Below are positions 54,001 through 57,000 of a DNA stretch of 64,000 nucleotides, piece by piece (position 1 is the first letter of the stretch; each line of letters opens with the position of its first letter). This stretch comes from an uncultured delta proteobacterium (lineage in GTDB: Bacteria > Desulfobacterota > Desulfobacteria > Desulfobacterales > SG8-13). Made by a program: the position numbers. The stretch is from contig CAWKCK010000017.1 in NCBI GenBank assembly GCA_963848135.1, forward strand, positions 248,001 through 312,000. Reading direction: 5' to 3'.

Positions 54001-57000
54001 AACTTACGGATTACATCTCTTGTCTTCGCGATAGTCTCTGCCGCAGCGGTGTCGATCTTGTTGATGATGAACACGCTGGAGGAAGCGATCTGCTTCTCCA
54101 GTGACGCGTATACTTCGTATGCATCCAGGAAATGGGCGGCATCGATTATGCAGAACTGCTCCTTGAATTTGAACCGGTTTTCGAAAATGGGCAGTTGGAG
54201 GTCTTTCTTGAGGTCTGAAGGATTGGCCACTCCTGTCGATTCGATCAATAGCACGTCGGGCTTTACATTGGTGTTAAGCGCGTAAAGTCCCTTGATGAAA
54301 TCGGTCTTTACACAGACACAGAAAATGGAGCCCTTGCTGATCTCCATCATATCGATGTCTTCACCCTCGACCAGAGTGCCATCTACCCCGATCTCGCCGA
54401 ATTCGTTCACCAGAAGGGTCAGTCTTTTATCCTTGGGAAATCGGCCGATAATCCGGTTGAGGAATGTGGTTTTGCCGGAACCGAGGAAACCGGTAATCAA
54501 GTAAACTTCAGTAGAATGGGCCATGGATTATAACTTCTCCGCTATCTTTTTCTGGATTTCTGCCGTCGGAAGAACCTTGCCGACTGAAATGACTTCTCCA
54601 TCGATGACAAGCCCCGGGGTCACAAATACACCCATTTGAGTGAAGTATTTTATGTCGGTTATTTTTTTGACTTCGATCCCGGCCCCAGCATCGAATTCTG
54701 CCGAAGCCGACACCGCATTTTCATAAAGTTGGTCACACCGTTTGCAGCCTGGGCCCAGCACTTCGACTTTCATTGTTCATCTCCTTGTGAATTCAGGTTC
54801 AGGAGGGTTTCATTGTGCTCAAAACCACAATGCCTGAACGTTACGTTTCCCCTTGTTACACGCTTTTGGGGATATGTGCATCGCGGCCGTCGCAGCAACT
54901 GTTGGTTAACGCGCAACGCAGAAATCGTCTCTTCTGAACTGACCATATTACCCACCAACCAGCACGTTGGCCTGGCCTGCCTTTACAAGCAGTTCTAAGG
55001 GATTTTGGCAGAATTTACAGACACCCAACGGAGAAGACCCTGGGTTGAGTTCATGCCAAAGGACGCCATATCGTTCGGTATCTTCGGCATTGACGCGTTG
55101 GGGCAGGTTGTCAGGTGTTTCGAGCTTGTGGATACGGTCGGACTTTCCGCAATAGGGGCATTTGATACCAAAGAGTGCCATATCTGTCTGGGGAAGGCTG
55201 TTGGTGATGATCAACGTCTTCAGTTGCTCGACGGCAGCATGTCTTTCCACCGTTCTGAACGCTCCTTCATCCATTGAAAGCCCATCCGAGCCCCAGGGGG
55301 GACCCGGATGGTTACATACACTATGGTTACTTGACTTTGGAGTCCACTCGGGTCGACTGTCCGGCACCGGCTTTTGCCAGGTTTTCCTGGATCTTGTCGA
55401 ACTCAAAGCCGACCTCCCGAAGCGAAATGATCCGTTGCTTCATCGCTTCGTTGGGGGCTCTTTTGGCCATCTCATCGATGAGCTCCTCGTATTGAGGGAT
55501 GATGCTTTCGAACACGAGGTCCCTTTCGATGCAGATGGTCGGCAAAACTTTGCCTTTGAGCTCGAGGAACTTGCCGATACCGTCTTTGTTCTTGATCGAC
55601 CATTCCTTGTAAACAATCATTTCCTGCACATCTGAGGGCAGGGCGGCAATCGACTCCATCATGTAGCCACAGGCCGCGCACTGCACGCTGTCCAGGGTTA
55701 AAACATCAATGGTAATTTTATCTTCTGCCATGATCCGAATCCTCCTTTCGCGAATGGTTTACCAAGATTCCGGATACTTGGCATAGTACTGATCATACCA
55801 ATCTCTGGCTTCGAGCGCTTGGTCCATATGTTCCACCGGAACATCATAGGGCATGTCTCACCCAGGTGCGAACGTGTATCCGTGCTGACCTCCAGCAGCG
55901 AGACTCACGATGGCATCTTCTCTGGGTGATAGCAGCCCCAGGCTCAGAGCCAGGGTCAACTTCAGGTTGCCACCGAACCCAACGCCGTGTTTGCGGGCCA
56001 GGTCGCGGACAAAGGTCAAGTTGAGTTGCTCGTCGATGGCAAACCCGTGGGTACCGAGTTTGCAGACGTCTTCCATTACCTTGGTGCAGTCGCCGCAGAT
56101 GAAGAACGAGGACGTCTTGCCGGCATCATGTATCGCCTTGATGGCCGGCTGGCAGTTCGGGGTAACGAATTCTTGGAAAGTTTCGGATTTGATTTGAGAG
56201 GCAACCGGGTCGACGATGGCAACGATGTCGCAGCCCATTTCCGCATAAAATTGGGCGGCAAGGGCACCGACTTCACCGGCATATTTGAGTATTTGGTGGG
56301 CGAATTCCTTATGTTTGTACACGTCCGTGAAAATACGCACACCGGCCAGATGGGAGGCCAGGGTCAAAGGGCCGCAGAATAGACCCATCAGCGAACAGTC
56401 GAGTTCTTCAAGCTGGGGTTTGGCAATTTTTGCCGCTTCAAATATCACCGGCCACCGCCCGGAGTCTTTAGTGGGCATCGTCAAACCGGCCTCGGACGGT
56501 GTTTTGCCAGAGCACGGATGCGTGGTGACTGAAGGAACGTTGTCATCCCACCACTTGAGTTCACACCCTACAGAGTTGGCTTCCACTGACAGATCGAACA
56601 GCAGTGGAATACCATCGGCCTTGTAACGTTTGGCCGCGTTGACAACACCTTTTGCAAGGAGTTCGGGGTCTTTGAGCATTTTTTCCGCCGGCTCATTGAT
56701 CAAAAATGCACAATGAACCCCAGCGTACGGTACCCAGGGAGCTTTTTCGGTCCTCTTGCCCCGGTAGGCATCAATCAGCATTTGTTTGGCCATGAATCTG
56801 TCTCCTTTCAGAATGTCGACATTAAACGCTTTCATTATCCAAGTTACCGTTTTTCTATCTCTCACCTCCCTTCCGAAATAATGGCCTTAAAGTATGATTT
56901 GTGGTTAACAACACGATTCAGCGTTTCCGCAACAACGCGCTGACAATATTAACGCACTATTAAATTTAGAACTGACTTTGTCAAATGAACTCTTTCCGGC

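Follow-up and report, generated by a model that had tools for sequence, protein, structure and literature searches.

A putative selenocysteine form of an MtaA-like methyltransferase and its predicted thioredoxin-fold partner in corrinoid gene clusters of an uncultured delta proteobacterium

The nearest described relative of the enzyme analysed here is MtaA of Methanosarcina mazei (4AY7/4AY8), the methylcobalamin:coenzyme M methyltransferase; with MtaA and its sister MtbA the fold is common over the whole length. In methanogens, mtbA goes together with mtmCB. This association is also dealt with in PMC13044021, where the functions of bacterial non-pyrrolysine MtmB systems are given as mostly unknown. 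A second point of comparison is provided by the type 1 mlp clusters of non-methanogen anaerobes (Kountz and Balskus, PMC10418091), which encode the MtaA-like proteins Mlp1-3, a corrinoid protein and RACE/RACo. They are defined by the presence of at least Mlp2 and Mlp3, a corrinoid protein and the RACE activase, with no H4folate methyltransferase, and their context ties them to the metabolism of methylated sulfur and selenium compounds, in genomes that possess Sec machinery (PMC10418091). The zinc sphere of such S-methyltransferases is reported there as His-Cys-Cys, and no mention of a Sec codon in an Mlp was found in the available part of that paper.

The locus described below lies in a stretch of 64,000 nucleotides, called the window, along which all coordinates are counted unless stated otherwise; all features are on its minus strand. 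As with MtaA and MtbA, the enzyme gene has those of a corrinoid protein and an activase as neighbours, and as with MtbA it follows an MtmB-family gene, here in seven related loci. Both zinc-cysteine positions of MtaA are filled, by Cys233 and a putative Sec312. Unlike MtaA, the enzyme has Phe for the zinc His and apparently Sec as last ligand, scores under the MtaA and MtbA cut-offs, is accompanied by a CobW GTPase, a TrxR-like protein and a dedicated thioredoxin-fold partner (to which it is fused in relatives), and belongs to a Desulfobacterales-type bacterium, as the names of near-identical database proteins suggest, not to a methanogen. The locus resembles type 1 mlp clusters in joining MtaA-like URO-D genes, here two, to genes for a corrinoid protein and RACo; unlike these clusters, which are without H4folate methyltransferase, it has an MtrH/MtgA-like gene.

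The enzyme gene (55759..56793, minus) is a single open frame of 344 codons followed by TAA, with a Shine-Dalgarno-like AAGGAG ahead of its ATG; the genome-wide survey's note had given 343 residues. The only in-frame TGA is codon 312 (55858..55860, contig 303858-303860), where that note had placed it. We consider it very likely, on comparative grounds, that UGA312 specifies Sec, a conserved hairpin assisting in its decoding. In an order-level sample of 201 genomes, 32 gave matches to the enzyme. Among the 38 match rows 35 contained one TGA, and the other 3 were fragments ending before codon 312. At codon 312, TGA was present in 30 of 30 order loci, with a genuine stop codon 32-33 codons further on in each, and it was kept in 37 of 37 loci, at 68-100% identity, when 7 loci from other families of the phylum were added. 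Conservation did not drop beyond it: over 29 aligned loci (L030, whose 5' end is cut, was left out), the mean majority-residue fraction was 0.85 after the TGA vs 0.858 before. Residues 312-336 were modelled by AF2 at pLDDT 94-97, with 320-336 forming the last helix. Cys occupies position 312 in the three full-length database homologs (P0004, P0051 and P0108, of 344, 344 and 341 aa), in the 60%-identical G557 form and in the wider family, and five paralogs in the host genome all have H-x-C and Cys. The host genome also encodes a tRNA-Sec (76.5 bits vs a cut-off of 47, anticodon TCA) and SelA, SelB and SelD, each above cut-off.

If the TGA were a real stop, the gene would yield a 311-aa truncated URO-D protein, or be a pseudogene, with its last 32 codons untranslated. 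This is how databases present it: 117 of the 120 best matches to the enzyme are annotated as 311 aa. TGA is moreover an ordinary stop in the host genome (table 11), and the energy of the hairpin is by itself unexceptional. We nevertheless hold a real stop to be highly improbable, as it has to face a TGA retained in all 37 loci down to 68% identity, a tail conserved like the body, in frame and closed by a second stop 32-33 codons on, a Pfam domain, a 4ay7 alignment and an AF2 model that all extend across the TGA, the existence of Cys forms, and a full Sec machinery. Most of these elements had been put forward in the genome-wide survey's note, and they held on the wider sample: Sec at codon 312, then based on TGA in 23 of 23 loci, now agrees with 37 of 37, with the conserved tail and with the synonymous sites of the hairpin. 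The Pfam and 4ay7 alignments across the site, Cys in the five paralogs and in the three full-length homologs, the 311-aa database entries and the Sec machinery (to which SelD was added) were all found again. A different genetic code was considered and rejected, table 11 yielding normal genes around the locus.

Bacterial SECIS elements have as consensus a hairpin shortly after the UGA, with a G in the apical loop. The candidate found here (55824..55849) covers nucleotides 12-37 after the U of UGA, its core stem pairing 17-23 with 27-33 around a GGU loop. It had been described as a conserved GGU-loop hairpin 16 nt after UGA; the hairpin was confirmed, as was its conservation, with the core stem however beginning 13 nt after UGA (nt 17 counted from the U). 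A 7-bp core stem bearing a GGU, GGC or GUU loop, 20 nt after UGA, was present in 32 of 32 distinct sequences, each base pair being formed in 29-32 of them. The one compensatory pair announced earlier, U:A to C:G, was recovered as a single cell in one sequence; 4 of the 8 pairs never vary, and 11 of 500 shuffles reached the same compensatory level. As there is no strong covariation, support for the hairpin comes from synonymous-site fixation: among agreeing residues of the 29 loci, the majority-codon fraction is 0.983 at codons 317-322 vs 0.582 gene-wide, the highest synonymous fixation of 338 six-codon windows. Stability was unremarkable, with z -1.22 for 43 nt (25 of 200 shuffles folded as well or better) and z -0.24 for 76 nt, and an Rfam scan of 55700-55950 matched no family to the hairpin, returning a chance-level L19_leader at E 9.9.

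RNA-library contigs from 4 studies cover the enzyme gene, and one of them, with 2 differences, bridges the TGA. This is weak support, because DNA can occur in such libraries; the data consist of contigs in all four runs, which are uninformative on transcript ends, strand and level, and in which uncovered parts amount to no finding.

In the literature searched, whose coverage of key selenoprotein papers was incomplete, no selenoprotein of the URO-D/MtaA superfamily was found reported; PMC8318568 and PMC1242214 may bear on priority. The Sec MtaA-like family is not named in the main text of the 2026 review PMC13188914, nor in the main text and one supplement of BSepDB. The Sec reading would add to this superfamily a selenoprotein family that is, as had been claimed, widespread (32 of 201 order genomes with a match, and 7 loci from other families). 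It would also mean that most members are stored in databases 33 residues too short, lacking both the active-site residue and the final helix. New in the present analysis are the fusion of the partner in other phyla, its predicted docking and the two cluster types, described below.

The enzyme has a URO-D TIM-barrel fold, with MtaA nearest. The Pfam URO-D domain covers residues 3-331 (E 8.9e-47), and 4ay7 was the sole sequence match to the PDB by phmmer (E 2e-25, residues 3-333). The AF2 model (pLDDT 96.2) gave 4ay8 and 4ay7 as best Foldseek matches (E 4e-22, TM 0.86-0.89, 25-26% identity). The enzyme had been assigned to the MtaA/CmuA branch; fold and nearest relative agree with this, but all model scores fall below the curated cut-offs (TIGR01463, 125.8 vs 235.4; NF004889, 119.1 vs 244; MtaA_Meth, 105 vs 400; MtbA, 87.6 vs 600), and the name should therefore be taken as designating a nearest relative, not membership. 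Uroporphyrinogen decarboxylase proper was rejected (hemE, 56.7 bits vs a cut-off of 303).

In the 4ay7 alignment, the H-x-C of MtaA stands opposite F-I-C of the enzyme, and the cysteine of the MtaA PGC opposite residue 312. The zinc-ligand positions are Phe231 (His in MtaA), Cys233 and the putative Sec312, an arrangement proposed earlier and recovered with both the 4ay7 and the paralog alignments. The His-Cys-Cys sphere is incomplete, its His position being Phe231, and Phe is found there in the enzyme and in 14 of 16 Cys-keeping relatives (alignment A2). Positions C233 and C312 are invariant across 17 family sequences. Asp254 and Glu255, at what we take to be the site of the fourth ligand in MtaA and MetE, are nearly invariant. 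Cys236 pairs with Cys233 as a CxxC here, and is absent from P0108, G557 and the wider family. Judging from these alignments, the active centre may be a rebuilt MtaA zinc site, in which His was replaced by Phe, Cys233 retained and the second Cys replaced by Sec312; a zinc site would then have been converted to a Cys/Sec centre that has a thioredoxin-like partner of its own.

This partner is encoded directly 3' of the enzyme gene (55327..55731, 134 aa). This immediate succession is kept in 18 of 20 loci; in the remaining 2, a second URO-D gene stands where the partner gene would be. Cysteines C18 and C21, of an invariant C18-A-A-C21, and C67 are conserved in all 19 sequences. The HUIPC-motif thioredoxin-like selenoproteins (NCBIfam NF047660) are reportedly those of Haft and Tolstoy 2025. 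The partner resembles them in matching NF047660, below the cut-off (31.3 bits vs 105), and a true HUIPC gene is present in the same cluster; it differs from them by its motif, Q-C-A-A-C in the 19 sequences instead of H-U/C-I-P-C, and by a helical C-terminal extension visible in its AF2 model (pLDDT 88.5). A Foldseek search of this model against the PDB gave nothing at E <=0.001, the top rows being thioredoxins at E 0.015-0.13. In other phyla, enzyme and partner are fused into one protein (P0129, P0131 and P0133, about 458-461 aa, and G216), and the C-terminal domains of the fusions also match NF047660 (P0131, E 1e-11). The 539-aa P0132 carries a third domain, an MTH895/ArsE-type Thioredoxin_3, so that domain order equals gene order here.

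Enzyme and partner were also predicted to form a complex, with a median score of 0.78 vs 0.00 for the best control, a mark that 116 of 157 solved complexes attained, as against 2 of 215 mismatched pairs. The runs shared at least 77% of contacts, and the partner had a pLDDT of at least 81. The alignment used was that of the Cys homolog P0004, from another organism and 81% identical, not the host's own protein. The predicted interface joins enzyme residues 233-235 and 312-313 to partner residues 16-20; the CxxC of the partner is thus predicted to dock onto Cys233 and residue 312. The face concerned is probably the one that the corrinoid protein needs, which is a point against the docking. Taken together, the two proteins seem to work as a unit. 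Neither fusion nor docking of this downstream thioredoxin-like protein figured in the genome-wide survey's note.

Further downstream, an ORF with a small conserved two-CxxC protein (54948..55406) probably has its true start later; it had no Pfam or NCBIfam match, and tblastn matched its residues about 48-139 in 8 of 20 loci. It is followed by an 81-aa Thioredoxin_3 protein of the MTH895/ArsE family (54528..54773; Pfam E 1.6e-19; TIGR00412, 74.5 bits vs a cut-off of 62) and by a 343-aa CobW/COG0523-type G3E GTPase (53493..54524; Pfam cobW E 4.4e-39, and CobW_C). Of the 20 loci, 17 have a GTPase of the latter type downstream of the enzyme, and in G216 one comes directly after the fused form. A 305-aa thioredoxin-reductase-like flavoprotein with a CxxC (52464..53381; Pyr_redox_2 E 3.1e-35; TIGR01292, 257 bits vs a cut-off of 343) is found in 10 of 20 loci, and a second, longer CobW-family GTPase of 452 aa (50735..52093; Pfam cobW E 4.4e-24) also in L047, L054 and L077. 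CbiR and MeaB are encoded in the same stretch as the enzyme.

Upstream are a DUF2284 protein, a predicted metal-binding protein according to Pfam (57036..57539; E 3.1e-44; 9 of 20 loci), which matches two NCBIfam selenoprotein models in their C-terminal part, with scores under cut-off, and a DUF6951 protein (57654..58016; E 9.8e-29; 12 of 20 loci). Then come a RACo-type corrinoid reductive activase in two frames (58294..60223; Fer2, RACo_linker and Raco_middle in one, Raco_middle and RACo_C_ter in the other), the frame changing within an AAG/AAA run, and a 221-aa corrinoid protein (60542..61207; B12-binding and B12-binding_2; TIGR02370, 197.5 bits vs a cut-off of 215.3). The last two genes encode a second URO-D methyltransferase with a canonical H-x-C ... 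C (61276..62328; Pfam E 6.1e-58; NF004889, 235.3 vs 244) and the MtrH/MtgA-like methyltransferase (62383..63339; Pfam MtrH E 1.5e-49; NF002142, 278.5 vs a cut-off of 287).

Synteny was compared across 20 loci, 13 at 78% identity or above and 7 at 68-75%. A conserved cluster, syntenic in 12 of 12 loci, had been claimed. The full cluster does occur among close orthologs, 8 of 13 loci having the second URO-D gene, the corrinoid protein and RACo, and a further 3 being interrupted by contig ends, but the upstream part is different in all 7 distant loci, where an MtmB-family gene stands with genes for a different corrinoid protein and a HutC-like regulator. The MtmB-family gene is directly upstream of the enzyme in these 7 loci and in the G216 locus; 15 of the 20 loci have a corrinoid protein gene inside them or nearby. 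We conclude that the enzyme gene occurs in two types of corrinoid methyltransferase cluster, one of them built around a non-pyrrolysine MtmB homolog. The two contexts would point to different methyl donors. Where no methyltransferase parts are present apart from the enzyme, the MtmB-family protein and the corrinoid protein, the enzyme is likely the second methyltransferase (MT2), a position held by MtbA in methanogens, and may be the one missing from bacterial non-pyrrolysine MtmB systems. In G049, G198 and G216 (95-99% complete, with the MtmB-linked or fused form only), no PF02007 (MtrH family) was found. PF00809 matched 2-4 times in each of these genomes, and tetrahydrofolate may therefore still be the methyl acceptor.

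Given its fold and its neighbours, the enzyme is probably a methyltransferase exchanging methyl groups with a corrinoid protein, like MtaA and MtbA. Whether this role, the Sec residue, the rebuilt zinc site and the unit formed with the partner all hold together, as our best joint explanation, we regard as evenly balanced. For the chemistry, we tentatively prefer, short of calling it probable, a Sec/Cys pair replacing zinc, with a selenenylsulfide reopened by the partner. Opposite methyl-Co(III)/Co(I), the Sec312 selenolate, jointly with Cys233, would take the role of zinc, binding and activating a soft atom (S, Se or a metalloid) in the compound that receives or gives the methyl group. Either in the course of turnover or following damage, Cys233 and Sec312 would close to a selenenylsulfide, which the partner would reopen, an exposed cysteine of its CxxC docking on the two residues. 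The partner might in turn be recharged via the Thioredoxin_3 protein and the TrxR-like flavoprotein, and the CobW GTPase could either load metal into the Cys233/Sec312 centre or serve the cobamide.

That 17 of 20 loci keep the CobW gene beside the enzyme, and that one also follows the fused form in G216, speaks for a metal centre and against a metal-free redox pair. Sec312, Cys233, Asp254/Glu255 and the substrate would then still hold zinc or another soft metal, with MtaA-like Lewis-acid activation of a thiol; CobW would insert the metal, and the partner would be an assembly or repair factor, reducing the ligands or handing over the metal, on the model of the Sco-type thioredoxin-fold chaperones that serve CuA sites. 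The near invariance of D254 and E255 fits such a centre, and docking of a CxxC on 233/312 suits metal hand-over as well as redox exchange. Structural matches to the enzyme also include MetE (1xr2) and BHMT (1lt7), oxidised forms of zinc methyltransferases according to entry titles; in both, the zinc cysteines close to a disulfide. The His ligand is however gone in 14 of 16 Cys-keeping sequences (alignment A2), Sec is expensive as a merely structural ligand, and a TrxR-like reductase with up to three thioredoxin-fold proteins exceeds the needs of a one-off assembly. CobW may also serve the cobamide instead, CbiR and MeaB lying in the same stretch. We find a retained metal centre rather unlikely, less so than the other alternatives considered here.

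The zinc-free Sec/Cys pair that we prefer has a counterpart in ArsM, the SAM-dependent arsenite methyltransferase, whose active-site cysteines bind the substrate atom and pass through a disulfide cascade and a thioredoxin cycle. The likeness, a proposed substrate-atom-binding Cys/Sec recycled by thioredoxin, is in mechanism alone: fold and methyl donor differ, and no sequence relation was seen. Selenoprotein forms of ArsM are listed in PMC13188914. By analogy, Cys/Sec could bind As(III), Se, Te, Sb or Hg, and a methyl group be moved to or from the corrinoid protein with a dithiol/thioredoxin cycle at each step. We judge such metal(loid) chemistry improbable. The soft Cys/Sec ligands, the thioredoxin-fold and TrxR-like proteins and the MTH895/ArsE-family thioredoxin of the cluster would suit it, and MtaA, when given methylcobalamin and CoM, is reported to methylate a number of metalloids in vitro. 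DUF2284, which adjoins the enzyme gene, is fused to an arsenite methyltransferase in the selenoprotein model NF041536 (matched below cut-off), but occurs in 9 of 20 loci only. The MtmB/HutU context (7 of 20 loci) has no evident metalloid link, and neither ars or mer genes nor any other resistance gene turned up at the loci examined (by Pfam/NCBIfam at the own locus, and at the compared loci). More specifically, a zinc-free, selenium-based methyltransferase coupling corrinoid methyl transfer to a two-electron dithiol cycle might act in sulfate reducers as a SAM-independent methylase or demethylase of soft metalloids and chalcogens (As, Se, Te, Hg), fed by the adjoining methyl-corrinoid system; we see this as decidedly unlikely. 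More generally, the enzyme may bear on how methylated compounds of sulfur, selenium and nitrogen are turned over in sulfidic sediments.

Two more genes with thioredoxin-like products lie at the downstream end of the region. One encodes a 262-aa protein with two Thioredoxin_3 stretches (49667..50455; Pfam E 2.1e-28). The other (45828..46132) encodes the HUIPC-motif thioredoxin-like selenoprotein, a paralog of the partner, with an in-frame TGA at 46079-46081; its NF047660 score, 99.9 bits vs 105, is that of the part after this TGA. In 7 of 20 loci, and also in L077, the HUIPC gene lies in the neighbourhood of the enzyme gene.

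The Sec enzyme gene, which encodes a URO-D/MtaA-like methyltransferase (window positions 55759-56793, minus strand), forms one frame of 344 codons closed by TAA. Its only interruption is the TGA of codon 312 (55858-55860, minus strand). The product length of 343 aa given in the genome-wide survey's note was thus off by one. Both the URO-D domain and the alignment with PDB entry 4ay7 had been said to run across the TGA, and they do: Pfam URO-D is found on residues 3-331 (E 8.9e-47), and residues 3-333 align with 4ay7 (E 2e-25), which is MtaA of Methanosarcina mazei and the sole PDB sequence match. 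In the AlphaFold model, residues 312-336 have a pLDDT of 94-97 and include a closing helix (320-336); as modelled, a 311-residue product would be missing part of the barrel.

Orthologs were searched for in 201 sampled genomes of the order. Matches were found in 32 of them (38 match rows), with exactly one TGA in 35 rows, the other three being fragments that end before codon 312. In all 30 loci cut out from the order, codon 312 is TGA and a real stop follows 32-33 codons further on, and once seven loci from other families of the phylum were added, the TGA was at codon 312 in 37 of 37. Over 29 distinct coding sequences (L030, a locus whose 5′ end is cut by a contig end, was left out), the majority-residue fraction averaged 0.858 ahead of the TGA and 0.85 behind it, which argues that selection at the protein level acts on the tail just as on the body. 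Position 312 is Cys in three full-length database homologs (75-81% identity), in the 60%-identical form of genome G557, and throughout the wider family. The source genome encodes tRNA-Sec (76.5 bits, anticodon TCA), SelA, SelB and SelD. RNA-library contigs from four studies cover the gene, and one of them, with 2 differences, bridges the TGA; since such libraries can contain DNA, this is a mere hint of read-through. From the invariant TGA, the conserved tail, the Cys homologs and the Sec machinery, comparative sequence evidence throughout, we conclude that codon 312 is very probably decoded as selenocysteine, as the survey's note had proposed.

A conserved GGU-loop hairpin with one compensatory pair had also been described, and both features were seen. 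Codons 317-322 make up a hairpin with a 7-bp core, its GGU loop lying 20 nt past the UGA. Among agreeing residues, the majority codon reached a fraction of 0.983 for these codons, against 0.582 for the whole gene, the top value of 338 six-codon windows (29 coding sequences). Such fixation of synonymous codons points to selection on the RNA in addition to protein-level selection. Little else spoke for the hairpin: there is only slight covariation, with 4 of 8 pairs invariant and a U:A to C:G change in one sequence, the single-sequence fold energy is ordinary (z −1.22), and Rfam holds no family matching it.

The model of the Sec enzyme (pLDDT 96.2) has 4ay8 and 4ay7 as best structural matches (E 4e-22, TM 0.86-0.89, 25-26% identity), followed by uroporphyrinogen decarboxylases (about E 1e-16) and then MetE. 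Curated models for MtaA, MtbA and CmuA all match far under their cut-offs, the best being TIGR01463 with 125.8 bits against 235.4. NCBIfam (June 2026) has no model specific for the enzyme, an indirect sign that curators have not recorded this family among the selenoproteins. Its nearest described relatives are MtaA, MtbA and the MtaA-like proteins of mlp clusters; unlike the Sec enzyme, the latter have no reported Sec codon in the accessible part of Kountz and Balskus (PMC10418091).

According to the same part of that study, the zinc sphere of the superfamily S-methyltransferases is His-Cys-Cys, and Mlp1 proteins of mlp clusters that lack this triad are among those it describes. Aligned with 4ay7, the zinc His becomes Phe231, the first Cys Cys233 and the last Cys residue 312, which bears out the earlier assignment of Phe at the His position and of residue 312 to the C-terminal Cys of MtaA. 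Likewise, the Cys reported for the five URO-D paralogs of the source genome is present in all five, together with H-x-C. A search of 1.84 billion cluster representatives returned 61 proteins at E 1e-30 or better. When 16 hand-picked full-length or near-full-length relatives were aligned with P0004, a full-length Cys homolog of the enzyme (17 sequences), C233, G234, G311, C312 and D313 were invariant, and D254 and E255 nearly so. His is replaced by Phe in 14 of the 16 Cys-keeping sequences of a 21-row alignment of family relatives, so that the loss of histidine is a trait of the whole family and not confined to this gene. Judged from these alignments, Sec is a variant within a histidine-less family.

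Starting 27 nt past the stop of the Sec enzyme gene, the partner gene (55327-55731, minus strand) encodes a 134-aa protein in which C18-A-A-C21 and C67 are invariant (19 sequences). Its model (pLDDT 88.5) is thioredoxin-like, no Foldseek match is as good as E 0.001, and the HUIPC thioredoxin-like selenoprotein model matches weakly, at 31 bits. The partner gene comes next after that of the enzyme in 18 of 20 wider loci. Moreover, three database proteins (P0129, P0131 and P0133, 458-461 aa) carry enzyme and partner domain in one polypeptide, and a fourth (P0132, 539 aa) adds to this fusion a further thioredoxin domain of MTH895/ArsE type, its domain order being the gene order of the window: enzyme, partner, 81-aa Thioredoxin_3 protein. 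The fusions come from other phyla, with source names Sphaerochaetaceae and Thermotogota; an enzyme-partner fusion is also present in genome G216, from the same phylum as the source.

A complex was predicted from two alignments of our own, one for the partner and the other for Cys homologs of the enzyme, led by P0004, which shares 81% identity with the window protein. The median score of the complex, a measure of model confidence for a chain 1 that is not the window's own protein, was 0.78, compared with 0.00 for the best control; of 157 solved complexes, 116 score at least this high, as do 2 of 215 mismatched pairs. Runs share at least 77% of contacts, with partner pLDDT of at least 81. The predicted interface comprises enzyme residues 233-235, 312-313 and 315-317 and partner residues 16-20, so that in the model the first Cys of the partner CxxC would meet the Cys233/Sec312 centre. 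The prediction supports binding of the partner to the Sec enzyme. We regard the enzyme as a probable Sec-bearing, histidine-less branch of the MtaA-like methyltransferases with its own thioredoxin-fold partner.

In minus-strand order, the window cluster consists of an MtrH/MtgA-like methyltransferase, a canonical URO-D methyltransferase, a corrinoid protein, the corrinoid activase RACo, DUF6951, DUF2284, the Sec enzyme, the partner, a small two-CxxC protein, a Thioredoxin_3 protein, CobW, a TrxR-like protein, a second CobW and a double Thioredoxin_3 protein. RACo (58294-60223, minus strand) is frameshifted, being split into two overlapping frames, the change falling among repeated AAG/AAA codons at about 59335-59365; the cause is either a real frameshift or a misassembly of this low-complexity stretch. 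Its halves share one frame in locus L040. The small two-CxxC protein, between the partner and Thioredoxin_3 genes, is without a family match and was matched in 8 of 20 loci; its listed frame (54948-55406, minus strand) overlaps the partner gene, and its true start is probably later. On the opposite strand lie MeaB, a G3E GTPase serving B12 enzymes, and CbiR, a phosphodiesterase of cobamide remodelling (47493-49301, plus strand), one or the other of which is also found in loci L043, L050 and L051.

The cluster had been described as conserved, which holds for part of the loci. Among 20 loci of up to 20 kb each, CobW is downstream of the Sec enzyme in 17, with DUF6951 in 12, the TrxR-like protein in 10 and DUF2284 in 9. 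Eight of the 13 close orthologs (at least 78% identity) have the canonical URO-D, corrinoid protein and RACo upstream; of the others, three are truncated where their contigs end, and two differ. The seven distant orthologs (68-75% identity; L042, L044, L045, L046, L055, L056 and L058, for example L056:4079-12638) all have the TGA and a different upstream part. There, all seven loci have a 460-aa gene of the non-pyrrolysine MtmB family immediately before that of the Sec enzyme, and the corrinoid protein is only 31-37% identical to that of the window. A HutC-like regulator is present in 6 of the 7, HutU (urocanate hydratase) in 4, MttB-family genes in 3 and HutI (imidazolonepropionase) in 1. Alongside the fused form of G216 are an MtmB-family gene, a corrinoid protein, CobW, RACo, DUF5714 and DUF1638. 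What stays constant is thus the enzyme with its thioredoxin-like partner and CobW, next to a corrinoid protein, while the methyl-donor enzymes vary. The HutC/MtmB-type cluster, to which the thioredoxin-like partner and CobW also belong, may serve to demethylate methylated histidines or some other quaternary amine.

The ortholog of L046 (G074:C1:391664-392693) is broken into two parts that cover residues 1-109 and 87-343; the latter part retains the TGA, and the break is due to either a frameshift or a sequencing error. The two loci lacking the partner have a URO-D paralog of 363 aa in its place after the Sec enzyme (L044:8451-9542 and L058:1649-2686); the genes that come next in L044 encode HutI and a cystathionine-gamma-synthase/methionine-gamma-lyase-like PLP enzyme.

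The fold, active-centre residues, fusion and gene contexts are established here. By analogy with MtaA and MtbA, we consider it rather likely that methyl groups pass between the Sec enzyme and the corrinoid protein. In loci with no methyltransferase nearby apart from one of the MtmB family, the Sec enzyme would hold the place of MtbA (MtqA) in methanogens (PMC13044021). No MtrH-family match was found in three genomes holding only the MtmB-linked or fused form; pterin-binding proteins are present in each, and tetrahydrofolate may be the methyl acceptor.

With histidine gone and Sec present, we infer that no ordinary zinc site remains at the centre. Both positions ligate one zinc ion in MtaA, which places Cys233 and Sec312 within bonding distance. 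Going by entry titles, oxidised forms of the related zinc enzymes MetE and BHMT are among the structural matches; in these, the zinc cysteines form a disulfide. The mechanism that we favour, tentatively and at somewhat less than even chances as a whole, is that the Sec312 selenolate and Cys233 would bind and activate a sulfur, selenium or metalloid atom of a co-substrate, that the pair could close to a selenenylsulfide, and that the docked partner would reopen it with electrons from the TrxR-like protein via the Thioredoxin_3 protein. The steady presence of CobW could instead mean that this GTPase inserts a metal that the centre has kept, the partner being an assembly and repair factor; we hold this to be the main rival and rather improbable, given the lost histidine and the size of the reductant chain. 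The soft ligands of the centre, the thioredoxin chain and the DUF2284 neighbour would also suit methyl transfer to or from metalloids, a bolder reading that seems quite improbable, since the loci examined hold neither a resistance gene nor other supporting context.

The observation in the survey's note is therefore confirmed and its interpretation supported. Now added to it are the fused forms of enzyme and partner and their predicted docking, a histidine lost across the whole family, constraint on the hairpin at the RNA level, and a second type of gene context. No earlier mention of the family was found in the literature searched, which falls short of all pertinent selenoprotein papers. It was not found in the main text and one large supplement of BSepDB; the accessible part of a 2026 review (PMC13188914) tabulates, among prokaryotic selenoproteins, the HUIPC protein, a CobW-related selenoprotein, and DUF2284-containing and ArsM selenoproteins, and in that part no URO-D or MtaA family was found.

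The SelD gene of the source genome (G000:C3:479380-480300, outside the window) has its own in-frame TGA and probably encodes a Sec-containing SelD. The window itself encodes a thioredoxin-like selenoprotein with an H-U-I-P-C motif (45828-46132, minus strand; TGA at 46079-46081), a paralog of the partner whose post-TGA part matches NF047660 with 99.9 bits. Directly upstream of it is a second partner paralog, with Cys in a Y-C-L-P-C motif (46143-46523), and in 7 of 20 loci both proteins are encoded close to the Sec enzyme.
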